From an uncultured Hormoscilla sp. (GTDB lineage: Bacteria > Cyanobacteriota > Cyanobacteriia > Cyanobacteriales > Desertifilaceae), in assembly GCA_963921275.4 (NCBI GenBank), contig OZ001293.3, positions 2,016,001-2,080,000 of the forward strand: a stretch of 64,000 bases of DNA. Reading direction: 5' to 3'. Within the stretch, counting starts at the first letter, position 1; the number at the start of each line of letters is the position of its first letter. The notes beneath the pieces were generated by a model. It had not been told where the DNA came from. It saw nothing but the letters and a program-made list of their open reading frames with translations, and did no database searches. Both the position numbers and the translations under genes were made by a program. This document shows, in pieces, positions 8,103-56,822 of this stretch.

Positions 8103-8146
8103 CGATGTCTCTGGAGTAGTGCGAGTAGCGCTCTCCAGAGACATCG
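8103..8146 (+). repeat. 44-nt hairpin micro-element (family A)
   Basis: CGATGTCTCTGGAG-TAGTGCGAGTAGCGCT-CTCCAGAGACATCG; perfect 14-bp arms. Confidence 0.85.
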
Positions 8147-8455
8147 AAGATCATTGATTCAGAAGGAGAGTTCGAGGACCGCGAAGCCTTACTATGTGGA
8201 AGGCTTGCAAATTGAATATTGGCAAGCTGATTGAAGAGATGTCTTTACAGAAGGGAATTATTCGGGCCAGTCACTTTTGCTGCTGCCATATTTACCAGTA
8301 GCCCAGAAACCCTGTTTTAAGGGATAACCTTTGTTTCGCCCATTCAACGGGGTCCATTCTGGCGGTCGGACGATACTGCTGCGCAGTCGCTGCGCGATCG
8401 AGACTCTGCACCAGAACAGGTTATTCGGGGGGAGAGCGCCGCGATCGCACCGGTG

Positions 8456-8606
8456 CTAGAGCGGCGGTCCATTGATAATACGCCGACATTTTCAAATATC
8501 TGTGCATCAACGGGAAATCAACATCTTCTCGTCTGGCCCTCTCCCCGGACCTCGAGAGGGCCCTCACACTTTACCCAAAATCTGTTCTACAGCGACCAGG
8601 CTCTAA
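8456..8606 (+). mobile_element. ~150-bp MITE, homologous to 51504-51650
   Basis: Starts CTAGAGCGGCGGTCCA; internal ATCTGTG.ATCAA and TTTACCCAAAAT blocks are shared with the 51.5-kb copy. Confidence 0.7.
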
Positions 8607-8674
8607 TTCTGTTCTAGTCGAATTGGCACATATGGCATCTATCGGAAGCTAATACACTAGAATAGCAGAAGTTT

Positions 8675-8763
8675 CGATGTCTCCGGAGAGCTTTCGGTGT
8701 CCCCCGGAAGCGCTATTCGCACTACCCGGTGGACACCGAACTCGCACTACTCCGGAGACATCG
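8675..8763 (-). repeat. Nested pair of family A hairpin elements
   Basis: Inner 44-nt copy 8695-8738 lies in the loop of an outer CGATGTCTCCGGAG...CTCCGGAGACATCG copy. Confidence 0.8.
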
Positions 8764-8925
8764 AAGCAAGATTTCGGGTGAGTTGCGCCGGGGTGAAGGC
8801 TAGCACCGGAGCCCCGGAAAGTTCGGGGCCTCATCAACTATGTGGTGGGGCGAATTTACCAGAAGATAAAATTGAGATGAGATAAAATAGTCAAAGCACC
8901 CGATCACAGAAGAGGTCTATCCATT

Positions 8926-9756
8926 ATGACTCAAGCAGTCGTTTCCGAGGTGACCATCAATGCACCTCAAGAAAAAGAATCACCACCAAGTGAGCGGATG
9001 TTCACTTTTGCAGAATATCTCGAATATGAAGGAGAACCGGACGTTCTCTATGAATTATGCAGGGGGAAACTCATACCCATGTCAGCAGCAACGCACCTAC
9101 ATACCAACATTTGCAAATTTCTGCTTTACAAGTTACAGCGCTACTTTGTGGACCAGAACTTAGATTTAGTTGCTAACTCTTTAGCGACCGGTGTCCGCAC
9201 GGAAGAAAATTCATCCCGAATTCCCGATGTGGTAGTCTGTAGCCAAACGGTTTGGGAACAAGCGATCGATCGTCCCGGCGCTGGGGTCTTAGATTTCGCC
9301 GAAAAGCCGATTCTGGTAGTAGAAGTTGTCAGCAGCAATGCCCGGGATGATTATGTGACGAAACGCTATGAATACGAAATCGCGGAAATTCCCGAATATT
9401 GGATAGTAGACCCGCAAAAGAAACGAGTGCGGGTGCTTGCTAATCCCAGCAAGGTAGAAGGATATAGCTTTGTCGATTTCACCGAAGAGCAATCGATTGT
9501 TTCCAGTCAGTTCGAGCAGCTAGTTTTATCGGTGAAAGAACTGCTCGCTCCTCCGCTGGTGGAGCTATTAATGAAAGCAGAACAGGCCAAAATGAAAACC
9601 ATGGCACAAGAGATCCTTTCCGAACGCCAACGGGCTGAAACCGAACGCCAACGTGCTGAAACCGAACACCAACGTGCTGAAACCGAACGCCAACGGGCTG
9701 AAAGATTAACCCAGCGGTTACTAGAAATGGGAGTAAACCCGTCCGAAATTAATTAA
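8926..9756 (+). CDS. Uma2-family putative endonuclease
   Basis: RIPDVVV, LVVEVVS, EYWIVDP; C-terminal ERQRAET heptads. Confidence 0.9.
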   Translation: MTQAVVSEVTINAPQEKESPPSERMFTFAEYLEYEGEPDVLYELCRGKLIPMSAATHLHTNICKFLLYKLQRYFVDQNLDLVANSLATGVRTEENSSRIPDVVVCSQTVWEQAIDRPGAGVLDFAEKPILVVEVVSSNARDDYVTKRYEYEIAEIPEYWIVDPQKKRVRVLANPSKVEGYSFVDFTEEQSIVSSQFEQLVLSVKELLAPPLVELLMKAEQAKMKTMAQEILSERQRAETERQRAETEHQRAETERQRAERLTQRLLEMGVNPSEIN

Positions 9757-9999
9757 ACTTAACCGTTCGATTGGGCGATCGCCATTGCAGGAGGAGATCG
9801 CCCGTTTGACAATTGGTAATAAGGAAAAAGCAGAACTGGAAGAATCATGCAGACGATCCCAGGCTATTCGGGGAGCGATCGCCGCGATCGCACCGGTCAG
9901 GGCCCCATAAACTATGTGGTGGGGCGAATTTACCAAAAGATAAAATTGAGATGAGATAAAATAGTCAAAGCACCCGATCGCAGAAGAGGTCTATCCATT

Positions 10000-10782
10000 A
10001 TGACTCAAGCAGTCGTTTCCGAGGTGACCGCCAAGGCACCTCAAGAAAAAGAATCACCACCAAGTGAGCGGATGTTCACTTTTGCAGAATATCTCGAATA
10101 TGAAGGAGAACCGGACGTTCTCTATGAATTATGCAGGGGAAAACTCATACCCATGTCAGCAGCAACGCACCTACATACAAAGATTTGCAAGTTTCTGGTT
10201 TATAAATTACAGCGCTACTTTGTTGACCAGAATTTAGATTTAGTTGCTAACTCTTTAGCGACCGGTGTCCGCACAGAAGAAAATTCATCGAGAATTCCCG
10301 ATGTGGTAGTCTGTAGCCAAACGGTTTGGGAACAAGTTGAGCATCGTTCCGGTGCTGGGGTTTTAGATTTCGCCGAAAAGCCGATGTTAGTGGTAGAAGT
10401 TGTCAGCAGCAATGCCCGAGATGATTATGTGACAAAACGCTATGAATACGAAATCGCGGAAATTCCCGAATATTGGATAGTAGACCCGCAAAAGAAACGA
10501 GTGCGGGTGCTTGCTAATCCCAGCAAGGTAGAAGGATATAGCTTTGTCGATTTCACAGAAGAGCAATCAATTGTTTCCGGTCAGTTCGGACAGCTAGTTT
10601 TATCGGTGAAAGAACTGCTCGCTCCTCCGCTGGTGGAGCTATTAATGAAAGCAGAACAGGCCAAAATGAAAACCCTGGAACAAGAGATCCTTTCCGAACG
10701 CCAACGGGCTGAAGCCGAACGCCAACGGGCTGAAAATTTAGCCCAGCGGTTACTAGAAATGGGAGTCAAGGAAATCAATTAA
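10000..10782 (+). CDS. Uma2-family putative endonuclease (tandem paralogue)
   Basis: Near-identical to 8926-9756, including ~90 bp upstream; fewer heptads. Confidence 0.9.
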   Translation: MTQAVVSEVTAKAPQEKESPPSERMFTFAEYLEYEGEPDVLYELCRGKLIPMSAATHLHTKICKFLVYKLQRYFVDQNLDLVANSLATGVRTEENSSRIPDVVVCSQTVWEQVEHRSGAGVLDFAEKPMLVVEVVSSNARDDYVTKRYEYEIAEIPEYWIVDPQKKRVRVLANPSKVEGYSFVDFTEEQSIVSGQFGQLVLSVKELLAPPLVELLMKAEQAKMKTLEQEILSERQRAEAERQRAENLAQRLLEMGVKEIN

Positions 10783-10788
10783 ACTTAA

Positions 10789-10916
10789 CTCTGTCTCCTG
10801 GGATCTCGATGTCTTCGGAGAGCGCCTTAAGCACTACTCCCGATGTGCTCTGCGCGCGAGCACTACGCAGAGCACCGATACGGAGACATCGTAGGAGCAC
10901 TACCCAGGAGACAGGG
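10789..10916 (-). repeat. Triple-nested family A hairpin insertion
   Basis: 128 nt absent from the paralogous site after the first Uma2 gene (AAACTTAA|CCGTTCGATTGGG at ~9755-9775). Confidence 0.85.
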
Positions 10917-11208
10917 CCGTTCGATTGGGCGATCGCCATTCTTTTGCGGGTAGCGATCGCCCATTTGATAAGCCAAGATTAACAATTCCGTTTGCTTCGC
11001 CCTGGCGACGTATCGCCGCGTTCTGGGGATGCACCAGAGGAGGCAGAGCCTCCCGAAAACGTTTCCGGCCCGATCCCGCAGCGTGGCGCAGCCATGTCAG
11101 GGAACGAGAGAAGCGTTGGGTTTCGTGAGATAACCCAACCTACAATATAGCCCGCGCAGGCGGGCGAAAGTTTGTCTAGCCCCACCCTGAAGGGTGAGGG
11201 CTCAGAGG

Positions 11209-14529: not shown

Positions 14530-14620
14530 ACTATGGTAATTCCTTGATAATGGAAAATTTCACCCTACAGTTCCCTATCCGGTCCCGATTTTTCCGGAAC
14601 GGTAGGGAACTGTGCGTAAT

Positions 14621-14953
14621 TCACGCCACGGCAAACCCTGTAAATTGTCGCACATATGGCGTTCTAAAGCCCAAAACAATATCTGTTTTAGGTATGCCTA
14701 ATTCTACTAACTGGTTAGCTAGTCCCTCCTCTGTAAAATCTTGTTGAATCCAGATTTTACCATCGTTAATATTGATATGAATGGGGCATCCATGAATTCT
14801 TTCCTCGCCATTCCATCCCACGTATAATAATAAATAGTTGTCCCGGGTCCGATCGAAAACAACTTGAACGTTCTTGGCGTATTGGGGGTTTTGTTCAGCC
14901 GCATGTTGCTGAATAATTTTTTCGATTAACTCTCGGTAATCTATTCTTTCCAT
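14621..14953 (-). CDS. xisI: XisI family protein
   Basis: GKIWIQQDFTEEGLANQLVELGIPKTDIVLGF...RQFTGFAVA. Confidence 0.9.
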   Translation of the reverse strand: MERIDYRELIEKIIQQHAAEQNPQYAKNVQVVFDRTRDNYLLLYVGWNGEERIHGCPIHININDGKIWIQQDFTEEGLANQLVELGIPKTDIVLGFRTPYVRQFTGFAVA

Positions 14954-15375
14954 AAGGCGATCTCCTGCTTATCCCTTGTAAATACTAACAATTTCATTGG
15001 CAAGCTATCTATTATTTCTTGAACAAATGGATCTGTAAAAAAACTGTAATAAACCTCCTGGGGAATAGCTAAATACAAAATTCGTTCTGGATCGAGTTTT
15101 TCCAAGGCTTTCTTATAGTTATAAAATTGACCAACAGCCATGTGTAACTCGTAGATTGCAGATAAACCTACAAAGCTTTTGACTTCCACGGCTATCAGAG
15201 ATTATCCCTTTACCGTGCCGGAAAAATCGGCAGAGATTAACTTTTCAGCTCCAAAGTCTATCTTTATTTTAACTCGCTCACTGGGGTTGAGAAATAAAGG
15301 GTCGCTAGTTATTGTCTACCCATCTTTTTCTAAAGCAGAACGCACTGTGTTGTTAAATATATCTTTCGCTGACAT
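14941..15375 (-). pseudogene. xisH: XisH family protein with nonsense codons
   Basis: MSAKDIFNNTVRSALEKDG*TITSDP (probably TGG to TAG), a second stop near 15203, then IAVEVKSF...W. Confidence 0.85.
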
Positions 15376-15530
15376 TTTATATATACTAAGGATAAGAACT
15401 ACATTTGCTATGGCGAGCGCCGATTCTTTCTATTTACAGATTAACACAAAATGTGGGTAATGACAAGGCCAGAGTCAGGTAAGGAGAGAACGGGGGGGGT
15501 TGGGTTTCGTGGGTCAACCCAACCTACAAG

Positions 15531-19801: not shown

Positions 19802-20613
19802 ATTAGGGGTAACGAGCGGGCAAATCGCTTTCCAACCCTCCCATTCAAAACCGTGCATGCGACTTTCACCGCACCATACTTGTGGGTAGTAGGTCCTTGT
19901 CATAGGTAGGATTACTAGAGATTACTCTCATTGTTCCTTGTCTTATGTGATTTTGCTCCTTCACTGGTTGGTGAGTGGCGCTGCCGGATAACCTTTAGTA
20001 TCACCATTTTCACGTCCGTTTTACCAGTAATTTATTCCTCATCACTTCGCAGTGAAGGGCTGATAACGTTTTAGAGCTACTTTTACCCGAGACTTCCTAC
20101 TATCACCCACCCACGTCTGCTTATCCTAGACATTACTCCAGGCATTTGCTGGGCCATCTCTCTACCCGTGACTTGCGCTATGCGCTGCGCGCACGCTACG
20201 CGGACGCACATCTGACTGGTCCAAGAGGACAGTACAGGAGTAGTTACTTCGTTCCCTGATATCCGGAGCAGCCCTAGGCCTAAAGGCCAGGGCTACATGA
20301 ACGAAGCCCGCCTGCGCGGGCTGGATTTGACGAGGCTTACATGAATTTGCTTGTTCTGACCTTGGACATCTAACAAGCGCGGCGTCACCGACTTAGGCTG
20401 TCAGCTATCCTACATTTAAGTCCTCGGGAGGCACCACGGTGATGTTACTCCGCAGCACCTCACGCGGTTACCCCCGCGCCTGGGGAGAGGGAATTTAATC
20501 CCCATGAATATCAGAGTTCCTAGTTTCCTAGGCTAGCGTTCCCAGTGATTTGAAACAGACGACTTATGAAGTTCACAAGCAAAAGGTTTCATTGGATAAA
20601 AAACGAATCAAAA
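19802..20613 (-). ncRNA. Degenerate ORF-less group II intron (copy 1)
   Basis: Damaged domain V GGTGCGGTGAAAGTCGCATGCACGGTTTTG and a domain VI ending ACCCCTAAT; collinear homology with 52540-53410; EBS1 region replaced by a REP-like repeat. Confidence 0.8.
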
Positions 20614-20717: not shown

Positions 20718-21620
20718 TTGGATATGGTTGAAAAAAGGTACAGCGTGGTAAGTATATTTAGTGGTTGCGGAGGCTTAGATTTAGGATTTAAACAGAAAGG
20801 CTTCGATTTAGTATATGCTTGCGATATTGACCCGAAGGCGGTAGACTGCTATAGCAGAAATATTGAACGATATATCTTTTGCTGGGACGTGCGTAAAGCT
20901 GAATTTCATGCAGATATTGCCGCTATAGGTAGTTGCGATTTGGTGTTAGGGGGCTTTCCGTGCCAAGGATTTTCTAAAGCTGGTCCCAAAAATGTCAAGG
21001 ATCCGCGCAATCTTATCTATAGAGAAATGTATCAGGCGATCGCCAGACTCTGCCCCCACCTCTTTATAGCTGAGAATGTAGACGGCATTTCCCAAAACTT
21101 TGCCGGTGCGTATATCGAACTGATTGTCAAGGAATTTGAACAGATTGGTTATGATGTAGAATATCGCATCCTGGACGCAGCAGCTTTTGGACTTCCTCAA
21201 CACCGCAGACGCATCTTTTTTGTGGGTGTAAGACAGCCATCAAACTATAAATTCCAGTGGCCCGAAGCAACTCATGCAGTCAAAACCCGTAACGGTGAAT
21301 TTAAGATATCCTCGATAAGTATAGAACAGTTACCGCTGTTTCAGTGGGCAAGTAAAAACGGAATATCATTACCAATTCGCACTATTAAGGATGCGATCGC
21401 CGACTTGGTAGAACTAGACGACTGCATTCCAGATCATCAAGTCACTAATGCTTGGTCCCAGAAGTACGAAGTCATTTTTAAGGCGATCGAACCAGGACAA
21501 AAGCTGTGCAATGTCAAACATGCTGCCACATCGGTATATACATGGGAAATTCCCGAATTTTTTGGTCTAGTTACCCAGCGCGAACGGACTATTCTGGAAA
21601 CCATATCCAAGTATCGGCGG
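20718..21620 (+). pseudogene. C5 cytosine DNA methyltransferase, 3'-truncated
   Basis: FSGCGG, GGFPCQGFS, AENV and QHRRRIF motifs; motifs IX/X missing, sequence switches to Ig repeats at ~21621. Confidence 0.85.
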
Positions 21621-23481
21621 CACCAGTTGCTACAGATGACTTCGCCACCGTGGAGTTGGGAACCAGTGAAACAATTGAGGTATTGGCAAATGACGCCGAT
21701 CCTAATGGGGATGATCTGTTAATTACAGGCTTCTCTTCAAATTCACTTCAGGGAGGTGCGATCGCCCGCGATGGTAATCGTCTGCGCTATACTCCAGCAG
21801 ATGGTTTTCGCGGTAATGACAGCTTCCGATACAGTATTGGTGACAGCAATGGCGGAACCTCCAGCGCAATTGTGAATATAACGGTGCCGAATACACCACC
21901 AGTTGCTACAGATGACTTCGCCACCGTGGAGTTGGGAACCAGTGAAACAATTGAGGTATTGGCAAATGACAGGGATCCTAATGGGGATGATCTGTTAATT
22001 ACAGGCTTCTCTTCAAATTCACTTCAGAGAGGTGCGATCGCCCGCGATGGTAATCGTCTGCGCTATACTCCAGCAGATGGTTTTCGCGGTAATGACAGCT
22101 TCCGATACAGTATTGGTGACGGCAATGGCGGAACCTCCAGCGCAATTGTGAATATAACGGTGCCGAATGCACCACCAGTTGCTACAGATGACTTCGCCAC
22201 CGTGGAGTTGGGAACCAGTGAAACAATTGAGGTATTGGCAAATGACAGGGATCCTAATGGGGATGATCTGTTAATTACAGGCTTCTCTTCAAATTCACTT
22301 CAGGGAGGTGCGATCGCCCGCGATGGTAATCGTCTGCGCTATACTCCAGCAGATGGTTTTCGCGGTAATGACAGCTTCCGATACAGTATTGGTGACGGCA
22401 ATGGCGGAACCTCCAGCGCAATTGTGAATATAACGGTGCCGAATGCACCACCAGTTGCTACAGATGACTTCGCCACCGTGGAGTTGGGAACCAGTGAAAC
22501 AATTGAGGTATTGGCAAATGACAGGGATCCTAATGGGGTGATCTGTTAATTACAGGCTTCTCTTCAAATTCACTTCAGGGAGGTGCGATCGCCCGCGATG
22601 GTAATCGTCTGCGCTATACTCCAGCAGGTGGTTTTCGCGGTGATGACAGTTTTGAGTACAGTATTAGTGACGGCAATGGCGGAACCGCCACCGCAACTGT
22701 GAATATAACGGTGTCGAATCAAGCACCAGTTGCTGCAGATGACTTCGCCGCCGTGGAGTTGGGAACCAGTGAAACAATTGAGGTATTGGCAAATGACAGG
22801 GATCCTAATGGGGATGATCTGTTAATTACAGGCTTCTCTTCAAATTCACTTCAGGGAGGTGCGATCGCGCTTACTGATCAGCTAGGTCTGCGCTATACTC
22901 CAGCAGGTGGTTTTGGCGGTACAGACAGTTTTGAGTACAGTATTAGTGACGGCAATGGCGGAACCGCCAGCGCAACTGTGAATATAACGGTGCCGAATCA
23001 ACCACCAGTTGCTGTAAATGACGAGGCCACCGTGAATTTGGGAGAAACTGTCACAATTGAGGTATTGGCAAATGACACCGATCCCAATGGGGATAGTCTG
23101 TCAATTACAGGTTTCAGTGCTCCTCAAGGAAATCTTCTAGGAAGTACGGTCGCCCAAAATGGTAATACTTTGAGCTATAGTATACCAATAGTTTTGCTAA
23201 AAGTTAGTGATCGTTTTACCTACACTATTAGTGACGGCAATGGCGGAACCTCCAGCGCAACTGTGAATATAACTGTGCCGAATCAACCACCAGTCATTAT
23301 TCCACCAGTCATTATTCCAGTCTTGGAAATGGATCCCAGTTTAGCTAGGATAGATGATCATGGCACTGCTGGAGAGCATGATACCATCGGGCTTGCTTTT
23401 CCATCTACATCCGTAGATGTCTTGATGATCCAATCCAATACGGTCTTGGATAAGGATCTGACTTCCCTTCCGCTACCCTAA
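21621..23481 (+). pseudogene. Tandem Ig-like (Big_9/tandem-95) repeat protein, headless and frameshifted
   Basis: Six ~276-bp units starting 21621, 21897, 22173, 22449, 22724 and 23003 (PVATDD...VLAND.DPNGD...YTP...SATVNITV); 1-nt deletion near 22538. Confidence 0.85.
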
Positions 23482-23618
23482 AGGGTAGGACTACAAGAAC
23501 TAAGCCCGCCTGTGCGGACTTAGGGTTAGCGACTATAAGGAGGAGGATCCTGACTTAGTCACAGATCGGATCCGATTGCTTATAATTGAGAAGTATCTTT
23601 CGGTAAAGAGAATAGCAT

Positions 23619-25179
23619 ATGACTTGGGATGTAGACGGCAATGGCAGATTGGACGCACTGACTGACGGAGGGTTGATAGTGCGTTATCTGTTTGGGTTGA
23701 CAGGTGAAGCCCTGACCAGGAACGCGATCGCTCCCAATGCAGCCAGAAGGACAGCAGATCAGATAACAGAATACCTAAGATCCATCCGTGACGAACTGGA
23801 TATAGATGGGAATGGCAATATAGACGCCTTGACTGACGGAATTTTGTATTTGCGGTATCTGTTAGGGTTTACCGGTGAGGATTTGACTTCAGGGGCTGTT
23901 GCTAGAGATGCGACGCGGAGGAACGCTGAGCAGATTGTCGCGTACCTGCTGGGGCCAATAGACCCTCCCTCTCGGGAACTGCATTTGTTTGAAGGTGCTT
24001 TCTTTGATGTTATCTTTAACTATACAGACCATCCCACGATCGATGTAGATGCAGTTCTAGATCGGCTACAAAACACGGATGACCCCAGTATTATTGGCCA
24101 GCAGTTCGTTGCAGTTGCTTTTAATCCGTCAGTCGCAACCGATAGCAGGGAAGTTAGTCAAATTCAGGAACTGCATGCGTTTGGAGATGCTTCCTTTGAT
24201 GTTACCTTTAACCTTTTGAAAGCATCGAATCAACCACCAGTTGCTGCAGATGACTTCGCCGCCGTGGAGTTGGGAACCACTGCCACAATTGACGTATTGG
24301 CAAATGACAGGGATCCTAATGGGGATGATCTGTTAATTACAGGCTTCTCTTCAAATTCACTTCAGGGAGGTGCGATCGCCAGCGATGGTAATGGTCTGCG
24401 CTATACTCCAGCAGATGGTTTTCGCGGTACAATACTCCGGACAGTTTTTAGACCCTATTTCGACTACAACACAAGGGTTGCAGCCAAAAGCGCCTTATTT
24501 TTTTCAATGTCTGCCCCAGGGCTAACTTGCCTAAAATTGCTCTATCGAGCAAAGGCTGACGCTGCGATGCGCGAGGGGTAGTGCGAGTAGCGCGCCCCGA
24601 GTGCATCGCAAGGCTTGCAGCTACGTACAGCCAAAACGGTCCGGACTATTGCGCGGTAATGACAGTTTTCAGTACAGTATTAGTGACGGCAATGGCGGAA
24701 CCTCCAGCGCAACTGTGAATATAACGGTGCTAAATCAGATTATTGGTAATAATCTTCTCACCAGCGAGACTGGAATGCGAGAAACCCTAGAAGGTGGCGC
24801 TGGGAGTGATATCATAATTGGTAACCGTGGTTCGGACATTTTATTGGGAGGCGCAGGTGCTGATGTATTTGTGTACAATAGCTTAGCTGACAGCGGCGCA
24901 GACCCAGATGCACCCCTTGAAGGCGGCGATGATATTCTTGACTTCAATCCAGCAGAGGATACAATCCGGTTCAACTTTGAGGTAGCTCCTGGAAGGCCAG
25001 TCTCTATTGATGACATACAGATTAATACTGAATTCATCAGTTTTGGCGCGGCTATAATTGGTGTTTCGACTCCTAATACTCCACGGGATTTTCTCCCCGA
25101 GCAATTTGTGATTACTTTGGCCAACTTAGATCAAACAACTACTGAGGCAAGAATCCGCAGCAGTATCCAATTCGGCTAG
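23619..25179 (+). pseudogene. Secreted Ca-binding protein (dockerin-like DVDGNG..DALTDG repeats, Ig repeat, RTX tail) interrupted by a MITE
   Basis: Two ORFs join at GFRG|NDSF once 24430-24651 and one target copy are removed; GGAGSD/GGAGAD nonapeptides. Confidence 0.8.
24430..24651. mobile_element. 222-bp MITE containing a nested 44-nt hairpin element (24565-24608)
   Basis: IRs CAATACTCCGGACAGTTTT / AAAACGGTCCGGACTATTG; 7-bp target duplication CGCGGTA. Confidence 0.88.
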
Positions 25180-28823: not shown

Positions 28824-28938
28824 CGATGTCTCCCGAGAGCGCATGGCTGCGCGATATCTTTTGTGTGCCGAGTCCCCACAAGAGCACAACAAAAGATATC
28901 GAACGCTACGCGATAGGAGCACTACTCTGGAGACATCG
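28824..28938. repeat. Composite nest of micro-elements (family A outer, short GC-rich repeat, family B inner 28852-28901)
   Basis: Outer CGATGTCTC...GAGACATCG; inner CGATATCTTTTGT...ACAAAAGATATCG. Confidence 0.75.
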
Positions 28939-36357: not shown

Positions 36358-36966
36358 GACATCTCCTCCATTGTTAACTTACTTAACTACGTTGCGGTGT
36401 CTCCTGGGAGACACCGCCTCAGGCTCGCATCTTCCGTAGGAGCACGTGTATTTTTTTGTAGCTTGTGGGCTGAGAGCCTTGCCTCGTCATAAATTTCAGC
36501 TTGTATGTTGCACCCCCCTGCTATTATACATGAAATTCAGCAGCTTGAGTTGGAAATTTCAGCAAAAATGAGATGCAGTCGTCAATCTTGAGCAAAAAAT
36601 TGTTTCATTCCGCTTCCTTACTCGCGTTGCTGGGCGTGACAGGACATATGTGCCACCGCTGGTTGGGGAGGCGAGAGGACCTCGGTTGTAAAACTGCTCC
36701 ATTGTTCATGGCCTTAGTTCTATCATGAGGGATATCCTGCCTGGTGGACATGAGGCGTGACAGCTACTCAAACCCTGATTTGGAGTCAGCAACAAAATGC
36801 CTCAAACCCTCATGATTGCGTTCTTGAGAACCCCAACTCCGAACTAGGGAACTCCGAACTGGTGAACGGGTGTAGTCAAAACCCGTTGATAAAAATATTG
36901 ATCCCCCAGCCCTCAGATTTTGACCACGGTGAACTCACGTTGGTGGGCGGTGCTGGATGCCATTTT

Positions 36967-37551: not shown

Positions 37552-38163
37552 TTCCCCGGTTCTCGTTCTTAGGTTCGTAGTAAGGACTTTAGTCCTTCTG
37601 CGGGTAGGTTGAGCACATTGCCAGTTCGACCCTTACTAGGATGGTCAAACAAATTGGGCAACAAGATATCTAAATAGTAGGACATAATTATTTAAATAAT
37701 TGTCAAATCAATAAGGGTGTGGTCAAAATTCGTTGTTACACGGCTGACGCCGCGCTGCGCGATCGGCCTCGCCGCCCGAACCCTGAAGGGTCCGGCTATA
37801 TGAACAAAGCCCGCCTGCGCGGGCTATATTACACGCATCACCAGATGCACCCATCAACTACTTGTGACCGCACCCAGTCAATAAGGCTAAGGGAGTTCCA
37901 AAAAATAAATTCCCCAATTTTATCGCTGTACCAACTGGTGCATCCAGACTACTGGATAATCTTGGAGGATTATTTACTTGGACTTCCCTATAACCCTTGC
38001 TGTGTGGTAATTTGAAGCTTTCGACTACAAACTACGAACCGCGTAGCGTTGCGAGGTACGAATTATCATGTGCTTAAGCCAGGTTAGGCTGGTAAAACTT
38101 CGATCGTCGAGGGTGAGAAAGCATTGCTCTGGACCGTTGTTCTTGATTTTGGCTGTTTACCCA

Positions 38164-40973: not shown

Positions 40974-41374
40974 CGATGTCTTCCGCACGCTCTTGTCCTG
41001 AAGGACATGCGCTGCGCGCACGCTACGCGATCGGCATGCTCCAGACATCGACTCGAGAGCTAATCGATTTAAGAACCAGTATATTAGAGGGGCGTTACAT
41101 GGATGCTTTAGCAATTGTCGATGAGCTAGAGGGAATGAGTAAACAGGCAGTATTGCGCAATATTGAATCATTTTTAATCAGAATGCTGATTCACTTGATT
41201 AAAAACCAAGTAGAAGAGCGATTAACCAATTCTTGGGCAGCTGCAATTAGAGATTCAGTCCGAGAAATTCACAAGCTTAATATCAAAGATAATAAAACAT
41301 CATATTACATAAAGTCAGATGAATTGCAGTCGGCGATCGAGGATGAACTGGAAGGGTCCTGCTCGTCCGCCTAA
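40974..41374 (+). pseudogene. DUF29 family fragment; start codon displaced by a 77-nt family B element (40974-41050), 3' end lost
   Basis: TRELIDLRTSILEGRY...LTNSW matches 60502/61096. Confidence 0.8.
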
Positions 41375-42441: not shown

Positions 42442-43152
42442 CTAATTCAATTCATCGGGGTCTATCCCAAGTTCTTGTAGCCGACTGCGCAACCTTTCAT
42501 ATTTGGCCTCTGCTGCTTCGGCCCGCAGCCTTTCTTGGATCGCTGATTCTGTGGGAGCCGGAACCAACTCCCCCGTTGAAGTCAAAAACCTCAGTTTTTC
42601 TTCTACTATTCCCAAATACAACTCTAGCTGTTCGCTCCACATCCAGCCCCGCTCATTCCGTGCTATTTGCACGTATTCCCTCTCTTGAGAAAGACGAAAT
42701 CCTTGGAACTCCAAGCTATAGGGGTCAAACCAAAAATATTCAGGAGTGGAGAATACATTCTGGTATATTTCTCTCTTGGTAACCCTATCCGTTTCGGCAG
42801 TTGAGTCGGATAGCATTTCTATAATCAAATTTGGATACTTGCCATCTTCTTCCCACACTACCCAACTTGTACGCTCTCTGAACTCCGTGTCCAATACTAC
42901 GAAAAAATCCGGTCCCCGGAACTCCTCGTTCCGGCGATGACTACTACTGTAATATATCGTCAAATTGCCTGCTGCAAAGAAATTGTTCCGTCGCTCTGGC
43001 GGGGCCTCCGGGCGATCGCGCCACCACCACTCCAGGCACAACAGTAACAGGATGATTTGTTTGAGATGGCGATATGTTTCCAAGGGCGGTTCATCACTCA
43101 AAAGTAACTTTTGCCGATATTTTAGTACATCGGGCTTGCTGCTTGCAACCAT
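42442..43152 (-). CDS. Uma2-family putative endonuclease
   Basis: SDEPPLE, GPDFFVV, IIEMLS, EYFWFDP. Confidence 0.9.
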   Translation of the reverse strand: MVASSKPDVLKYRQKLLLSDEPPLETYRHLKQIILLLLCLEWWWRDRPEAPPERRNNFFAAGNLTIYYSSSHRRNEEFRGPDFFVVLDTEFRERTSWVVWEEDGKYPNLIIEMLSDSTAETDRVTKREIYQNVFSTPEYFWFDPYSLEFQGFRLSQEREYVQIARNERGWMWSEQLELYLGIVEEKLRFLTSTGELVPAPTESAIQERLRAEAAEAKYERLRSRLQELGIDPDELN

Positions 43153-43273
43153 AGCTCTATCAACTCCTTACTCCTATCTCTAGTCTAGCAAAAGATTGGC
43201 CCTCCGTAGTCATATTCTCTTCTGGGAGCGCGGACCATTGACCAGGGCATTTCCAACAGGCGGCGATCGCCTC

Positions 43274-44068
43274 CTAATTCAATTCATCAGGGTCTATCCC
43301 AAGTTCTTGTAGCCGACTGCGCAACATTTCTAATTGGGCCTCTGCTGTATCGGCCCGTTGGCATTCTGCATCGGCCCGTTGGCGTTCTGCATCGGCCCGT
43401 TGACGTTCTGCTTCGGCCCGTTGGCGTTCTGCTTCTTTCTGTAGCCTTTCTTGGATCGCTGATTCTGTGGGAGCCGGAACCAACTCCTCCGTTGAAGTCA
43501 AAAACCTCAGTTTTTCTTCTACTATTCCCAAATACAACTCTAGCTGTTCGCTCCACATCCAGCCCCGCTCATTCCGTGCTATTTGCACGTATTCCCTCTC
43601 TTGAGAAAGACGAAATCCTTGGAACTCCAAGCTATAGGGGTCAAACCAAAAATATTCAGGAGTGGAGAATACATTCTGGTATATTTCTCTCTTGGTAACC
43701 CTATCCGTTTCGGCAGTTGAGTCGGATAGCATTTCTATAATCAAATTTGGATACTTGCCATCTTCTTCCCACACTACCCAACTTGTACGCTCTCTGAACT
43801 CCGTGTCCAATACTACGAAAAAATCCGGTCCCCGGAACTCCTCGTTCCGGCGATGACTACTACTGTAATATATCGTCAAATTGCCTGCTGCAAAGAAATT
43901 GTTCCGTCGCTCTGGCGGGGCCTCCGGGCGATCGCGCCACCACCACTCCAGGCACAACAGTAACAGGATGATTTGTTTGAGATGGCGATATGTTTCCAAG
44001 GGCGGTTCATCACTCAAAAGTAACTTTTGCCGATATTTTAGTACATCGGGCTTGCTGCTTGCAACCAT
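43274..44068 (-). CDS. Uma2-family putative endonuclease (tandem copy)
   Basis: Nearly identical to 42442-43152, with extra ERQRA heptads. Confidence 0.9.
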   Translation of the reverse strand: MVASSKPDVLKYRQKLLLSDEPPLETYRHLKQIILLLLCLEWWWRDRPEAPPERRNNFFAAGNLTIYYSSSHRRNEEFRGPDFFVVLDTEFRERTSWVVWEEDGKYPNLIIEMLSDSTAETDRVTKREIYQNVFSTPEYFWFDPYSLEFQGFRLSQEREYVQIARNERGWMWSEQLELYLGIVEEKLRFLTSTEELVPAPTESAIQERLQKEAERQRAEAERQRADAERQRADAECQRADTAEAQLEMLRSRLQELGIDPDELN

Positions 44069-44189
44069 AGCTCTATCAACTCCTTACTCCTATCTCTAGT
44101 CTAGCAAAAGATTGGCCCTCCGTAGTCATATTCTCTCCTGGGAGCGCGGACCATTGACCAGGGCATTTCCAACAGGCGGCGATCGCCTC

Positions 44190-44963
44190 CTAATTCAATT
44201 CATCGGGGTCTATCCCAAGTTCTTGTAGCCGACTGCGCAACATTTTTAATTGGGCCTCTGCTGTATCGGCCCGTTGGCATTCTGCATCGGCCCGTTGGCG
44301 TTCTGCATCGGCCCGTTGGCGTTCTGCTTCTTTCTGTAGCCTTTCTTGGATAGATGATTCTGTCGGACCTGGAACCAACTCCCCCGTTGAAGTCAAAAAC
44401 CTCAGCTTTTCTTCTACTATTCCCAAATACAACTCTAGCTGTTCGCTCCACATCCAGCCCCGCTCATTGCGTGTTATTTCCACGTATTCCCTCTCTTGAG
44501 AAAGGCGTAATCCTTGGAACTCCAAGCTATAGGGGTCAAACCAAAAATATTCCGGCGTAGAGAATACATTTTGGTATATTTCTCTCTTGAGACTCCTATC
44601 CGTTTCCACAGTCGAGTCGGATAGCATTTCTATAATCAAATTTGGATACTTGCCATCTTCTTCCCACACTACCCAACTTGCACGTTCTTTGTACTCCGTG
44701 TCCAATACTACAAAAAAATCTGGTCCCCGAAAGTGCTCGTTCCGGCGCTGGCGACTACTGTAATATATCGTCAAATTTCCGGCGGCATAAAAATTGTTGC
44801 GTCGCTCTGGCGGCGCCTTCGGGCGCGAGCGCCACCACCACTTCAGGCACCACAGTAACAGCATGATTTGATTGAGATGGCGATCTGTTTCCAATGGCGG
44901 TTCATCACTCAACAGTAACTTTTGCCGATATTCTAGCACATCGGGCTTGCTACTTGCAACCAT
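44190..44963 (-). CDS. Uma2-family putative endonuclease (diverged tandem copy)
   Basis: Same motifs; scattered substitutions in the nuclease domain. Confidence 0.9.
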   Translation of the reverse strand: MVASSKPDVLEYRQKLLLSDEPPLETDRHLNQIMLLLWCLKWWWRSRPKAPPERRNNFYAAGNLTIYYSSRQRRNEHFRGPDFFVVLDTEYKERASWVVWEEDGKYPNLIIEMLSDSTVETDRSLKREIYQNVFSTPEYFWFDPYSLEFQGLRLSQEREYVEITRNERGWMWSEQLELYLGIVEEKLRFLTSTGELVPGPTESSIQERLQKEAERQRADAERQRADAECQRADTAEAQLKMLRSRLQELGIDPDELN

Positions 44964-50492: not shown

Positions 50493-50684
50493 CTGGCTGC
50501 GTCTCATGAACTGGTCAACTGACTAACCCACCGTCAGTTGTTCATTGTGTCGCAGACTTTGCTATTTCTCAAGTTTTATTACTGGACTGATATCCTAGAT
50601 AAAAAATTAAATCACACAGATAAAATAAAATAAAATGCTGTAGTCTAGTTAAAACACGCTCAAAAATTAGGTAGGAACGGAAAG

Positions 50685-51107
50685 ATGAAACGATTACTGT
50701 GCTTGTTGCCGGTATTGGTGCTGTTGTTGGCCTGTCTGGGAAATGCTCCTCGGGCGCAGGCGGCTGATTTAACCGATCTGCTTTGGCAGTCATCGCCGGT
50801 AGTGGTGGCTGAAGTCCCAGTACGCAATCAGGCTGACGATAAGCTAGCAGAGATTAAAGATAAAATCGATTTGAACAACACAAATCTGCGAGCATTTATG
50901 AAGTATCGCGGTTTTTACCCGGTGCTGGGTCGCAAAATAATTAAGTACGCCCCCTACCAGCAGGTAGAGGATGTTCTGGATATTCCGGGATTGAGCGATG
51001 GCCAGAAAGAAAGGCTGCAAGCAAACCTGGAAAACTTCACTGTCACCGCTGTTGCCGATGTCTACACCCAAGGGGGCGATCGCTATAACAACGGCGCCTA
51101 CGATTAA
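50685..51107 (+). CDS. psbU: Photosystem II 12-kDa extrinsic protein
   Basis: Signal peptide; KIDLNN, GFYPVL, DRYNNG.Y. Confidence 0.95.
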   Translation: MKRLLCLLPVLVLLLACLGNAPRAQAADLTDLLWQSSPVVVAEVPVRNQADDKLAEIKDKIDLNNTNLRAFMKYRGFYPVLGRKIIKYAPYQQVEDVLDIPGLSDGQKERLQANLENFTVTAVADVYTQGGDRYNNGAYD

Positions 51108-51117
51108 GCCTTTCATT

Positions 51118-51637
51118 TCCTCTCGCTCCCGCTGTAATAGCTGACCATTAACAGCTTGTTTACCACAGCCGCACTTTCTTCACTAGCAAGACTTTTTGTC
51201 CTAGGGGAGCTGGTGTGGCTGTAATTTATGCGGCATACTTTGGCTAGAGCGTCGGTCCATTAATAATACTTGACAAATTAAAACATCTGTGAATCAATGA
51301 AAAATCAACATATTCTCGCCTCCCCCCCATGTCCTCCCTCTCCCTCTCATGATTTTACCCAAAATTTGTTGTACTGGTCCTCTCGCTCCCGCTGTAATAG
51401 CTGACCATTAACAGCTTGTTTACCACAGCCGCACTTTCTTCACTAGCAAGACTTTTTGTCCTAGGGGAGCTGGTGTGGCTGTAATTTATGCGGCATACTT
51501 TGGCTAGAGCGTCGGTCCATTAATAATACTTGACAAATTAAAACATCTGTGAATCAACGAAAAATCAACATATTCTCGCCTCCCCCCCATGTCCTCCCTC
51601 TCCCCCTCATGATTTTACCCAAAATTTGTTGTACTGG
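51118..51637. repeat. 260-bp tandem direct duplication (psbU 3' region plus most of a MITE)
   Basis: 51118-51377 and 51378-51637 are almost identical. Confidence 0.92.
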
Positions 51638-51650
51638 ACCGATGCTCTAG
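51504..51650 (+). mobile_element. ~147-bp MITE
   Basis: IRs CTAGAGCGTCGGTCCA / TGGACCGATGCTCTAG; truncated copy 51244-51377; homologue at 8456. Confidence 0.8.
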
Positions 51651-51802
51651 CCCTGTCAAGGTGACGGGAAACAATGGCCCGCCCAGCCGATCGCGCACGC
51701 AGCCATGTATGGTATTTTTTCTTACCTGCTCAGGAGTAAAAATTTTTCTGTTCTTCATAGCCTTTAGGCCTTGGAATAGCTTGCTCTGCGCTATCTACAA
51801 TT

Positions 51803-54654
51803 GTTGGTGTCTTTAGTTTTTCGCCACCTTTGAGCGGTTGTGTAAGGCATGATCTCGTTGGACGACAAGGAAGAATAACGTCAGACAGCTGTGCTCATTC
51901 GGGAAAGCTCCTATTTCATCAGACTTCCTGGGAAACTTTCCAAGCGTTCGAGTAAGTTAGAGGTTCTCATCCTACAATGTAACTCAGGCGCCAATTGGTA
52001 GAAAGTCAAGGTCAACTCAAGAGCTCTCTGGAACCTTTGCACTGCCTTATATTCCAGAACTTCCCACTTCAGGAAAAACGCTGCCAAGCGCTGTTGTGCT
52101 TCCTGTGAGCGAGGGCGCAGCGTAAAGAGCATAAGCATCATTTTGAAGAGGATAACGACGCTGTTGTTTGGCTTGGGAGTGAGTTAGCTGTTGTCCCATC
52201 TCATCATGTTCGGGGAGTTGTTGATAGCTCAGATCGTCTTGGAGCCGTCCCACAAGGTGGGTGATGCATCGCTGTTGCTTGGCCTTGGGCAGATGTTTGG
52301 TCATGGCAGCAGGCAAACCTAAAGTCCCATCACTCACAACTACTTCAACAATTTCTGCTTGCAGACCCCATGCCATTAAGTTTTATATGAAGTTTTCCCA
52401 GGCCAGGGTGTCAAGACAGTTGGGCAATTTCGTAATGTATAAGTTGGTAGCTGCCATCTGGCCAGACAGCCATCGCCGCCAAAATTACACGCTCTTGAGC
52501 TTGCCCCATCTGGCGGAGATGTCCTGCAGGGTCTACTTTGGATGGGGTCGAGCCGGGAATCGCTTCCCGACCCTCCCTTGAGGAACCGGACTTGCGATTT
52601 TCACCGCATCCGGCTACTGGGTACTAGGCCCTTTTCATAGGTAGACTTAATAGGAATTACTTCCGTTAGCCCTTGCCGCCTGTCTTTTCTTCCCTTTCCT
52701 GGTTTAGCGAGTGGTTGTTCTGATAACCGTTAGTATCACCATTTTCAAGTCAGTTTTACCAGTTATCCATACCTTATCCTCCACTTGCGTTTCGGATTAG
52801 TTCCGTGGCTTTTTAGGATTACTCATTCCAGCAGCTTCCTAGTATCACCGACCCACGTCAGCGCTGGCTACCCAGCATCATCTACATTACTGTAGATGTT
52901 ATCCCAGGAATTACCCCGGGCATTCGCTTCTTGGGCCATCCCTCCCCCCGTGGCTTGCGCTTAACATCTAACTTGTCCTGATGGACAGCACACGAGAGGT
53001 TACTTCGTTCCCTAACAACATTTCGCGATACCTTTAGGTCCACACTATACCCCGGGAGCTATTTGAGTACTATATTAGCCAGAGTCTAAAACTAATACTA
53101 GCTACCATTTCCTTTTTAGGCCAGCGCATATAGTCTTATTTCGCTGGTTCCTTATAACGAGGCTTGCACATGTTTGCCTGCTCTAACCTTGGATATCTTT
53201 CCTAGCGGCGTCACCGGCTTAGGCTGCCAGTTATCCTACATTTGAGTCCTCGCTTAGCACCACGATGATGTCGCTTCGTAGCACCGAGGACCGGTGTCAC
53301 CCCCGTACCTGGGGGGAGGGGAATTTAACCCCCATGCGGTCAGAGTTCCCGGCTAATGAAACCGGGCTAGCGTTCCGTGTTTGACCACGTTAGGCTAGAA
53401 CGAATCGCACAAACTCTTCAAGGGTATATTGGATGTCCACCCAGACCCCATCTACAATCAAGATGGGAGGCGTCTTCTCAATCACCGATTGACGATGTTT
53501 ATCCATTTGCTGTTGAGCTTGTAAAGTAATAGGATTGATGGCACTCACAGATAGGACACTGCCCAGAAGAGGATAAAGTGCCTCTTGCAAGTCCCTGAAG
53601 GATAAACCCATCACATACAGACATAACCCCAAGTGAGCGTTGTTAAGACCGCGTTGATAGCCTTGCAAGATTTGCCATTTACGATCTGCATTACCCCATC
53701 TGAGTTTGGGCGTAGTTTATCAATTCTGCCATACTCGGTGTCAAGTACCCGAGAAAAATAACCTGAACGTCTTGGCTGAGGTCCAATGAAAGCTGCTGCG
53801 CTCAGCTTCCAATTCTTCGGCTTTTTCAATAATCACTTTAGTTATGGCCACAACTTCACCTTTAAGGGTTGCTTCCAGTTCCGCACAAAATTGCTGGTTG
53901 AAAACTTTGGGATTGGATGGGTACTATTTGCTTTTCACCCTCGGCTATTTTCATGGCAAGTTACTGTAAGAATTTAATCTCCGATGGGTATCAACCCATT
54001 CCCGGGACAACTTTGCCCAAGGGAGAGGCTGAAGCCCCTGTGAGCTGGATGCCTTGCATCACTGGCTGTCCCGACTTAAGTTGGTAGCCTCTCCGATATA
54101 CACCTTAATTATACCATTTTTCAAAGTTCTGGTCTCCTGTACCAATGAGTGATAAGTAAAAGTTATATATACGAAATCAAGAGTTTCAGCCTTTTTTACT
54201 CGCCTGTTTTGTAGACCATTACATTTTCTCAATAAACTCAAGAGAGCCCAAAGTTCTGAGAGACTTGACATTGCAAGGATTGCTGGAGGCTGGTGCCTTT
54301 GCAAATACCGTTACTAGATTCTACCTAGTAACCACAGCTTATGTGCGAGCATCACAAATTTATTAAATTGACGCCGCAACTTTTTTCAATCGAGGACATT
54401 TAGGCATTCTGAGAACAACATTTTCACTCCTAGGGCGAGAAACCGTGATTCTTTCGTAGAAAGTTGCACCGAAGCGTTAAATTGATATACTGCTGTGGGA
54501 GAGCCCTCACTGCAGGCTATCGGGCCAAATCGCCAGAACCATTGAACCATAAGGGTTGAGCACCAGAATAGCCATTTTTCGATGTGTAATTTAAATGCGC
54601 GACAGCTTACTCCCATTAACAAAGGTAAGGTGGCGAATAATTTCAGACACCAAC
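51803..54654 (-). mobile_element. IS256-family element, transposase decayed and intron-interrupted
   Basis: IRs GTTGGTGTCTTTAGTTTTTCGCCACCTT / AAGGTGGCGAATAATTTCAGACACCAAC; target duplication TACAATT; RSGYFSRVLDTEYG, LIVDGVW, SDG, QRC, RTSNLLER. Confidence 0.88.
52540..53410 (-). ncRNA. ORF-less group II intron (copy 2), apparently intact, 871 nt
   Basis: 5' GTGCG at 53410; domain V AGCCGGATGCGGTGAAAATCGCAAGTCCGGTT; domain VI hairpin; EBS1 AGACTCT pairs with the exon end AGAGTTT; removal restores EEF-KVD. Confidence 0.9.
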
Positions 54655-55134
54655 TACAATTAATTCATACTTTTTTAAAATTTTTTTAAAATTTCTTCAT
54701 TTTCTCCATTACATTTAACCTGTTCAAGCAAACGGCCAAATATCTCGAAATATTTTTGGCCAATAACTGAAATAATTATTGTAGATTTGCTCACGGTGCA
54801 ATCCTAACATTTGAAATGTCAAACCTTGTCCTAGATAAATCAAGGTTAAGAGTATTTGATCTTCCACTAATAATTTAGGTTTGGCGCCGACTCCTGGTTC
54901 GATTAATCTAATTTTCGTCTTTTCTACATTGTCTTGATACTTTTTATTCATTTTTTTTGCTAAAATGATAAGTTGCATAAAATTTTCATAACTGATACCG
55001 ATTAACTGCTTTGCTTCTTTGTGCTTCTCAATATGTCCATGTATAACTATAGCTCATGTTCCTTAAACCTCACAATTAAATTTTTAAATCTTATTATACC
55101 AGAATTTTCTATTTTGGAAATGTCTAATCTCATG

Positions 55135-56012
55135 GTTCGATCGCGTGATGATATTTGCAGTACGCGGTTCATCTGTGTTTTTCATCGGTAGCAGACCCAG
55201 AGATACCGATCGCCTGGGCCCTTTGAATGCCCGCGAATAGCATAGGCCATGTTGCATACTGCATATTCTGAACCACTGCGATCGAGAGGGAACTTTGGCG
55301 GTATAGTCAACACTTTATACCTCAAACCAGCGCTGGGCGAGGGAAATTGCTTCATTTGAAATCTGTCCGACTCGTCCCACTGGGACAAGGTTTGCCGCAG
55401 GATGGAGTTAATGCCATCACAACCAACCAGAAGGCGAGGCTCAAATCTGAAAACCTTGCCGTTCTCTCCTTGACCAATAATCTGAAGTAACTCCGACTCG
55501 TTATTATCTTTAGCTATCCTGTTAATCTCGACACAGTCTGTGTTGAACAAGACTGTGATACAGTGCTGCCAATTGCATTCTATTTCCTGGTATAGCAACA
55601 GCAGAAATGCTCTGCGCGGTAGCCAGTAGGCAGTTTTCCGGTTTGGATTGGTAATGGGTAACTTTGATGTTTTCCGCTTGCCATTAGACCGAATCACTGT
55701 TAAGTAAAATTCCGTATTGGGCACGCTGAGTTTTGCTAGCTGGTCCGTGAGTCCGATGAAGTCGGTGAATTTTTGACCCCGACCATCAATTTGATAAAGG
55801 AATGACTTATCAGGTTCATAGTAATCAGCCGATGGACGTTTTTCCAAGACGATTATATTTTTCCAACCCCGTTTGGCCAGCATTAAGACAGTGGCGAGTC
55901 CTGCTGGCCCGCCTCCCACGATCGCAGCGTTCACCATCCGATCGAGAATAAAATAAACTCCCTGTGCTGTCAAGGATTTTTCAGTAAGCATCATATTGTT
56001 GGCATTAGTCAT
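55135..56012 (-). pseudogene. FAD-dependent monooxygenase, 3'-truncated next to the IS end
   Basis: IVGGGPAG, LLVGCDGINS; second half with the GD motif is missing. Confidence 0.8.
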
Positions 56013-56100
56013 CAGTTTCTCCTGCTAGAAAGCGGATGAAGGCGATCTTGTTTTATTGGGAGCATCTCATATTTTATCTCCTACCCGGTGCGTTACGGGT

Positions 56101-56187
56101 CGGTATCTCCTGGGTAGTGCGAGTACGATGTCCCTCGGGTAGTGCGATTAGCGCTCTCGGGGGACATCGAGCGACCAGGAGATACCG
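56101..56187 (+). repeat. Nested pair of family A hairpin elements
   Basis: Inner 44-nt copy 56126-56169 lies in the loop of the outer copy. Confidence 0.8.
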
Positions 56188-56256
56188 AAGACCGAAGGGC
56201 GATCGATGAAGCTTGTTACGAGGCCAAAAATGATCGCGCCCGCCCCGTAACGCACC

Positions 56257-56822
56257 CTACGTAACACTTGTTGTTATTCTTGAGTGCTGATTTCTGACCT
56301 TTGCTAATTTACTCTCGATAAAATCGTCTATATCTGAGACAAAAACACCGGATTGAAGTTTAATTTCCAAAGCTTCTGCTACTTCTATCACATCCAGAAA
56401 GCTAGAATTTTGATAGTTGCGGTCTTCATATTCCTTAATTGTATATTCGGAAATTACTGTAAGTTCCGCTAACTCTTTGGGGCTAATTTTAGCGGCTATC
56501 CTAGCTTCGATCAGAATCTGAACGATCGCCTTGTCTATGGTGAGGTCAGATGTTTGTAAAACTAAAGGTTGTTCCCGATCGTGGGCCTTGAGTGCTTCAT
56601 ATTCAGCAATTTCAGACTGTAATGCTTCCATCTGGCTTTGATAAGAATCTTGAAGCAGTTGCCATCCATCGGTGTCCCCCGAGAGCGCTACTCGCACTAC
56701 CCGGGGAACACCGCAGGATCGTTGGTTTTCTTTTCTTCATTTTGACGCAGTGAGGCGATCGCTTTGGAAAACCTTTCCGCCCAATATTTGGTTACACCAT
56801 ACTCATGTTCGTTTTTAATCAT
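56257..56822 (-). pseudogene. XRE-family HTH protein frameshifted by a 44-nt hairpin insertion (56670-56713)
   Basis: MIKNEHEYGVTK...TNDP|DGWQLLQDSY...LIEARIAAKISPKELAE; removing exactly 44 nt restores the frame. Confidence 0.85.

Follow-up and report, generated by a model that had tools for sequence, protein, structure and literature searches.

A 45-nucleotide hairpin micro-element spreading in genomes of the cyanobacterial genus Hormoscilla

Introduction

The small dispersed repeats (SDRs) of Nostocaceae, described by Elhai et al. in 2008, are reportedly 21-27 nt long; SDR1 and SDR4 are said to nest within themselves, SDR5 is reported to use the octamer HIP1, and an RNA route is said to have been proposed once for the SDRs. 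How elements of this size, and of the size of repetitive extragenic palindromes (REPs), spread has been an open question since 2008. Here we analyse a dispersed hairpin, which we call the 45-mer, that recurs in a stretch of 64,000 nt from an uncultured Hormoscilla sp. (GenBank assembly GCA_963921275.4, contig OZ001293.3, positions 2,016,001 to 2,080,000; hereafter the window). A sequence-only reading of the window had proposed a family of mobile hairpins with a fixed length of 44 nt. We keep its numbering, in which this 44-mer is positions 1-44; the modal inserted unit is positions 2-46 and ends in GAA.

The SDR paper of Elhai et al. 2008 (PMC2527708) is cited in PMC5861425 and PMC3733652, and the part of PMC5861425 available to us reports that SDR-like repeats were not found outside Nostocaceae. 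For REPs and REPINs, which go with the REP-associated tyrosine transposases (RAYTs, also TnpA-REP), the available parts of the papers give several rules of recognition. HUH enzymes tell strands apart by bulges, mismatches and loops, and group 3 REPs consist of GTAG, two bases and a five-pair perfect stem (PMC8266576). The choice of the C 5' of the cut falls to the G4 of GTAG, and for resolving the phosphotyrosine any 3'-OH could serve (PMC3479197).

Results

A hairpin family confined to Hormoscilla

When the genome of the window (G000, 7.03 Mb) was searched for arm-core-arm units, 278 clean, un-nested copies of the 45-mer were found, against 2 in the reversed chromosome used as control. A profile scan of G000 gave 441 left-right pairs, 283 of them at unit length. 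The arms are diverse, with 246 distinct cores in the 278 copies. Within the window the 16-nt core has seven matches at three mismatches or fewer, where 0.20 would be expected; five of these belong to the element, a sixth places the same head within a REP (position 62501), and one stands without arms (15889).

The exact core pattern was present in 4 of 4 same-genus genomes and in 0 of 56 others. A pattern built on the foot of the hairpin matched G000 91 times forward and 93 times in reverse, and each of 400 other genomes of the phylum 0-2 times, near the control level, and among the matches listed from a named genome collection 74 of 74 loci were Hormoscilla. Four sequencing runs containing part of the window DNA carry the label sponge metagenome. 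In contigs from four runs the joints inspected include no excision joint, a result without weight, since contigs lose rare variants and 46 further joints lay outside the inspection. At gathering thresholds the 45-mer had no match in Rfam, and no description of it was found in the literature searched, a scope that leaves aside most subscription journals and supplementary REP tables. The family had been called unrecognised, and in this sense it is: the 45-mer is undescribed in the literature searched, though its SDR/REPIN-like kind is already known. We conclude that it is a real, genus-restricted, actively spreading micro-element, and a non-coding hairpin.

The element also remodels genes: of the 278 copies, 53 fall within long reading frames, with 40 of them antisense and 13 sense to the frame (p = 0.005 versus 44% expected, duplicates included). 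A preference for positions downstream of genes was not seen (22 versus 28).

Fold and conserved bases

The 45-mer folds into a 19-bp stem with one bulge: positions 1-14 lie paired opposite 44-31, the bulge is T15, and a second run of pairs (16-20 with 30-26) closes a loop of positions 21-25. That the stems covary, as had been proposed, is borne out: 12 of the 19 pairs show two-sided changes in an alignment of 36 rows, a result matched by 0 of 500 shuffles, and of 248 distinct copies 229 have a Watson-Crick pair at 11:34, where 83 would be expected. The core strand outfolds its complement, both as DNA and as RNA.

The further proposal that structure and not sequence is conserved is not supported as worded, for the sequence is conserved too. 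G17 and T18 are found in 100% of the copies, an invariance that is partly a matter of ascertainment since core detection tolerated five mismatches, and the TGTC/GACA foot is kept in 83-96%; in the 36-row alignment the core is invariant by construction, its rows having been picked by the exact core pattern. Pair 18:28 is T·G in 272 of 278 copies, pair 19:27 is G-C in 240 and a compensatory A19-T27 in 19, and a G-NNN-A loop is present in at least 230. Positions 14-17 mostly read GTAG and always end in G, with T at position 16 in 18%, and the C at position 1 is kept in 96% of 108 solo sites.

At 13 sites shared with relatives, the arms had changed on one side in 20 cases and on both sides in 2, with two block swaps besides (at 2 of the 13 sites). 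Since one-sided changes dominate, pairing is likely enforced when the 45-mer moves, and the copies then decay and swap patches. In-place arm-to-arm repair, considered as the origin of the covariation, was rejected on the same counts.

Filled and empty sites

About 2.0 Mb of three congeners (G002, G003 and G004), with a little of a fourth (G001), could be aligned to G000 at about 95% identity. This comparison gave 32 filled/empty pairs, counting one site twice and including a few rows of cousin elements, and so confirmed the mobility and the presence/absence polymorphism that the sequence-only reading had proposed. The gain is exactly positions 2-46 in 18 of the 32 pairs (which makes 45 nt where one copy went in and as much as 243 nt in composites) and is off by -4 to +3 in the others. 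The fixed length of 44 nt therefore does not stand: the commonest net insertion is 45 nt, and 43, 44, 46 and 47 also occur. Composite units of 60-243 nt have the same clean junctions. The absence of target duplication, also claimed earlier, survives as a rule, since no regular duplication was found in the filled/empty pairs; the net-44 cases carry an ambiguous overlap of 1-4 nt.

The right junction is more exact than the left. In 20 simple pairs, one of them mis-registered and one read on the other strand, the 3 nt to the left of the unit were changed in 12 and the 3 nt to the right in 4 (p = 0.02). Where the left flank has changed, it reads in some pairs as the reverse complement of the right end. 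The target motif is weak, R-A-T-S-W five to nine bases upstream and then K-C^G (^ marking the junction), and the 108 solo sites show A at -8 in 69%, T at -7 in 66% and G at +47 in 67%. The left junction is C^G (70%), the target C^G (67%) and the right end A^, and 64 of 164 solo copies have the exact C(GAA)G junction. Positions 0 and 45 pair in 56 of the 108 solo sites against 38.7 by shuffle, and at these sites no flank pairing was found beyond position 0. Nested copies keep to a small set of fixed positions in loop and head and mostly share the orientation of their host (81 versus 11 in a rough pattern count).

Could the repeats instead be immobile, formed in place by template switching at replication and spread by gene conversion, with the empty sites as deletions? 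Partial deletions do exist, and the block swaps at 2 of the 13 shared sites are of the expected kind, but the empty sites are clean and scarless in several species, the nests grow at fixed positions, and 20 one-sided against 2 two-sided arm changes indicate that pairing is not repaired in place. We find this explanation hardly credible; it is largely refuted by the empty sites and the one-sided changes. The 45-mer is almost certainly mobile and non-autonomous.

Copies in the window

Every locus listed in the sequence-only reading holds the element or a derivative of it. The copy at 8103-8148 (+) consists of C1, a 42-nt fold-back core and a GAA tail, its inserted unit in the modal register being 8104-8148; it is identical in sequencing runs X1-X3, and its DNA fold (8102-8148) has z = -8.9. 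Two further single copies lie at 56670-56713 (-) and 24565-24608 (+; net 44). The latter interrupts a Big_9/cadherin/RTX-repeat gene, and its site is empty in loci L022 and L085, with a right-flank match of just 35 nt. As the flanks of this copy recur elsewhere in the genome, the site has spread with the host repeat. The gene itself (21506-25179) is made of 276-nt Big_9/cadherin repeats and RTX repeats and is split into several frames, the 45-mer at 24565 being one of the breaks.

The loci taken for tandems of two or three copies are nested insertions. At 8673-8763 (-) an inner copy of the same orientation (8695-8738, -) sits in the loop of the outer one, and at 56101-56187 (+) the inner copy (56126-56169, +) occupies the commonest loop site, after TAGTGCGANTA. 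The nest at 10789-10916 (-) has three levels, with a middle copy (10807-10891, -) within the loop of the outer copy and a shortened innermost copy (10841-10877, -) within the left arm of the middle one; its site is empty in the loci of G002, G003 and G004 and in a paralogue near 9756 of the window. The locus 28824-28938 (-) is one copy with 71 nt of other micro-elements gained in its loop, namely a sibling of 22 nt with a 49-nt hairpin inside it. The orthologous sites of G002 and G004 hold a plain 44-mer, so this nest has grown in place.

A collapsed copy, noted near 36395, is indeed there as 22 nt (36395-36416, strand not assigned) that lack the head. The head was likely lost through deletion between short direct repeats in the arms, and the orthologue pair L040 shows such a loss of 24 nt from the head. 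In the congener comparison the orthologous sites of 8103, 8675, 36395, 56101 and 56670 were not alignable. Among the genes of the window, putative nucleases of the Uma2 family that end in heptad-repeat tails occur as tandem paralogues at 8926-10782 and 42442-44963.

Sibling micro-elements

The 45-mer is not alone: the genomes that carry it also show polymorphism in six or more unrelated families of micro-elements, 15-60 nt in size. They include 15-mers and 24-mers inserted after CGA, 22/23-mers, a 24-mer in the centre of HIP1, and a hairpin family marked by GTTCCC. This last family lost 2-7 target bases in 16 of its 19 pairs, and its flanks differ both on the left (16) and on the right (12). 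Cousin elements have the GATGTC/GACATC-GAA foot in common and different heads. The HIP1-centre 24-mer, laid out as GTAG, 2 nt and a 5-bp perfect stem, has the GTGC-N5-GCGC head in common with the 45-mer; the 24-nt element at 41008-41029 (-), with this head and layout and a GCA triloop, belongs to a different family from the 45-mer. Sibling elements of 15, 22 and 24 nt, made up of GNA-triloop mini-hairpins and inserting after CGA, are also found in the window at 14587-14599 (+), 15216-15228 (-), 11075-11094 (+) and 20181-20202 (-), and those inserting after CGA give dozens of filled/empty pairs.

Among 311 mini-hairpins after GATTTTT (after CGA), 292 have GNA triloops and 1 the complement, across compensatory stems. 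Mini-hairpins with sheared G·A pairs are far stabler in DNA than in RNA, with a Tm of 76.5 versus 39 for GCGAAAGC, in the part of the source available (PMC13037366). The GNA triloops of the siblings, taken with this DNA-favoured stability, are our main reason to prefer a single-stranded DNA intermediate, through which the 45-mer may also pass.

So many unrelated families raise the possibility, which we consider doubtful, that stable single-stranded DNA hairpins are captured at nicks by a nuclease or recombinase of another type, or by host repair alone. The hairpin would hold the ends together, flap trimming and ligation would vary the left junction, and the many families would be passengers. 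The cousins that combine one foot with different heads, the composites of 60-243 nt with the same clean junctions, and the lack of any link between known enzymes and the 45-mer all speak for such capture. It names no candidate, however, and the bases preferred at -8, -7 and +47 of the 108 solo sites, together with the fixed nesting sites, indicate a specific protein.

Candidate enzymes

The sequence-only reading had supposed an enzyme acting in trans on folded single-stranded DNA or RNA. A trans-acting factor is needed, and the folded single strand gains indirect support, leaning towards DNA; the search for an enzyme flanked by the motif found none. Four Y1-HUH (RAYT-like) loci are present in G000, two of them missed by Pfam and three flanked by their own hairpin families, and in the genus the polymorphic GTTCCC family flanks Y1-HUH genes. 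One intact REP-associated tyrosine transposase of 177 aa, missed by Pfam, lies about 8 kb before the window (L255:1191-1724 (-), equal to contig C1:2007194-2007730 of G000). It is flanked by GGCAGAGCC/GTTCCC hairpins, a family also found at 4671-4693 and 5855-5878 of the window. GTAG-type REP doublets occur in the window at 20305, 29910, 35952, 37808 and elsewhere, and in an array beside an intact RAYT at C1:241795-242139; G002 and G004 have an intact RAYT of roughly 270 aa. Rfam labels the doublet at 37803 a CRISPR repeat, likely wrongly.

Tyrosine recombinases (PF00589) were not found in G000 (96.7% complete), G001, G002 or G004, in a search whose control matched 14 of 14, which suggests a possible loss of XerC/D-type enzymes; G003 has 2 matches on one contig. 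No autonomous element bounded by two halves of the 45-mer was found in G000, apart from an unrelated insertion of about 2.7 kb with short inverted ends (C1:5277775-5280536) that splits one copy at the GTAG motif.

A serine recombinase of the IS607 type, or an IS110 enzyme, might insert the 45-mer through a 2-nt core, the junction dinucleotides coming from donor or target. G000 has five near-identical IS607-like copies and four IS110 pieces, and the junction dinucleotide is target-like on the left, on the right or on neither side, depending on the case. A double-stranded circle of 45 bp is implausible, though, net gains of 43-47 nt do not suit an exact recombinase, and IS607 ends and IS110 flanks are unlike the 45-mer; this origin is very unlikely.

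Group II introns are a richer source of enzymes, with 93 RVT_1 (reverse transcriptase, RT) matches and 361 intron 3' ends (domain V-VI) in G000. Two families account for 144 and 75 copies, one intron lies in the window (52542-53410, -), and another sits inside a 45-mer copy at C1:949413. Their RTs could copy a 46-nt hairpin RNA, with a C1-G44 pair and a 2-nt 3' overhang of the kind RNase III leaves, into DNA breaks. Priming from the RNA 3' end would make the right junction exact, and template switching or snap-back with 1-nt microhomology would make the left one variable. In the sections of the papers available, linear introns retrohome with exact 3' and variable 5' junctions, an extra top-strand T appearing after template switching (PMC3280974), and group II RTs carry out snap-back synthesis as well as joining at microhomologies (10.1101/2022.03.14.484287), while their template switching works best with one base pair (10.1101/792986). 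The left flanks turned into the reverse complement of the right end, the excess of 0:45 pairing and the GTGCGA with which the 45-mer head begins, as intron 5' ends do, agree with this route. Against it, GNA loops suit DNA, the intron 3'-exon consensus differs from the target motif of the 45-mer, pairing stops at position 0, and with about 200 intron 5' families an exon-like match may be chance. In G015, 6 RT matches stand beside 109 copies of a sibling hairpin family, and G028, with 138 RT candidates, has a modest hairpin family and fewer hairpins (24 versus 46 per 160 kb). On balance we think the route unlikely.

In 400 kb of the RT-rich cyanobacterium G028 (L161-L174) we observed a variable-arm hairpin family with a fixed 15-nt core and 9 clear copies; a clear parallel to the 45-mer was not found there. 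Two further comparisons with introns were set aside. The loop insertion site was considered as the +9/+10 cut of an intron endonuclease and dropped, the intron 3' exons being without the target motif, and the match of the left half to the exon-intron junction of one intron family is a curiosity, given the roughly 200 5' families. As to the contigs of G000, C1 has 4,738 HIP1 octamers, C3 (17.6% GC) has none and may not belong to the genome, and C4 holds a long perfect tandem array of a unit of about 66 nt.

Discussion

The 45-mer is present by the hundreds, is polymorphic between congeners, nests at fixed sites and folds on one preferred strand. It inserts at a weak target motif, makes no regular target duplication, and has a right junction more exact than its left. 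The reading that we tentatively favour, without holding it to be probable, is that a host Y1-HUH (RAYT/TnpA-like) tyrosine transposase cuts the 45-mer and re-inserts it, in trans, as folded single-stranded DNA. The enzyme would bind the head, with its bulged T15, T18·G28 pair and G-NNN-A loop, and positions 14-17 may serve as a REP-like guide that chooses the C 5' of the cut. The free form might be a dumbbell closed by the C(GAA)G loop. Strand transfer would link its 3' end to the target downstream, and its 5' end would be joined exactly if the target ends in C and be completed by host repair otherwise, which could explain both the spread of 43-47 nt and the changes on the left. Inserted copies would decay neutrally and swap patches by ectopic recombination. 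In favour of this route stand the strand-specific T·G pair and G-NNN-A loop, the agreement of C1 (96%) and G17 (100%) with the way the G4 of GTAG picks a C, the group 3 REP layout of the sibling 24-mer, the four Y1-HUH loci, the GTTCCC family that flanks such genes, and the failure to find tyrosine recombinases in 4 of 5 genomes. The polarity of the junctions fits one-ended HUH strand transfer and linear-intron retrohoming with snap-back equally well.

Several results weigh against the Y1-HUH route. The sequence-only reading had suggested looking for an HUH/RAYT transposase flanked by the motif, and the 45-mer flanks 0 of 4 Y1-HUH loci of G000 and 0 of 16 from relatives, where loose chance matches alone were seen. 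GTAG sits inside the stem and reads TTTG in about one sixth of the copies, and while RAYTs are known to cut at C^T, the left cut here reads C^G and the right one A^. Mismatches in the outer arms are equally G·T and A·C (45 versus 55). The orientation of copies agrees with local GC skew in 136 of 278 (p = 0.76), in a genome where this skew is weak, and this lack of bias may speak against a strict preference for the lagging strand. Introns show an orientation bias, as does the RAYT-flanking family, unlike the 45-mer. The junction polarity is modest, given the flawed rows among the 20 pairs, and no sibling family is significant alone. The GTTCCC family, tried as a control for polarity, was dropped, as its counts, with target bases lost and both sides differing, were not clean. 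Finally, the GNA evidence is strongest for the siblings, which may move by another route.

A broader and rather improbable idea is that Hormoscilla has an undescribed, cargo-tolerant pathway that recognises sheared G·A loops in folded DNA and mobilises hairpins of single-stranded DNA between 15 and 250 nt long, one end being exact and the other left to repair. One enzyme of a new type would then move the 45-mer and its nests along with the families of 15, 22 and 24 nt. If true, this would amount to an ecosystem of near-minimal selfish DNA, and would also account for the SDRs of Nostoc. Hormoscilla, where copies run to hundreds and filled/empty pairs are many, and where the junction signature is defined and the candidate enzymes are few (four Y1-HUH loci and the intron RTs), makes the question of how such elements spread testable. 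An enzyme that places small hairpins with no target duplication could double as a tool for short insertions.

How, then, does the 45-mer compare with known systems? Like SDR1-8 of Nostocaceae it is tiny, dispersed, structure-covarying, self-nesting, recently mobile and without a known enzyme. Unlike them, and compared by description, it lives outside Nostocaceae, inserts at a target other than HIP1 and, with a modal unit of 45 nt, is about double their length; it forms one long fold-back, and the evidence on it leans to DNA and not RNA. It is the sibling 24-mer, not the 45-mer, that resembles SDR5 in inserting into the HIP1 centre. With REPs and REPINs and their RAYTs, as presented in the parts available of PMC3116915, PMC3479197, PMC6006769 and PMC8266576, it shares a short imperfect hairpin, hundreds of copies, the absence of target duplication, a strand-specific bulge, mismatch and loop, a GTAG-like motif and in-frame insertions in genes. 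It differs from them in that its GTAG lies in the stem and is not obligatory, in having no inverted doublet, no flanked RAYT gene and no C^T cuts, and in its far more diverse arms.

The non-autonomous derivatives of IS200/IS605 likewise lack target duplication, prefer a base 5' of the insertion and have an extrahelical T and a hairpin mismatch. The 45-mer, unlike them, is one hairpin and not two ends, has a weak target in which only C1 is strong in place of a strict tetranucleotide, shows no detected strand bias, and has an imprecise left junction, altered in 12 of 20 pairs. Integron attC sites are a poor parallel, PF00589 not having been found in 4 of 5 genomes of the genus. [quoted passage not shown] Set apart from SDRs by size and lineage, from REPs by RAYT linkage and C^T cuts, and from MITEs by target duplication, the 45-mer yet works like an SDR or a REPIN.

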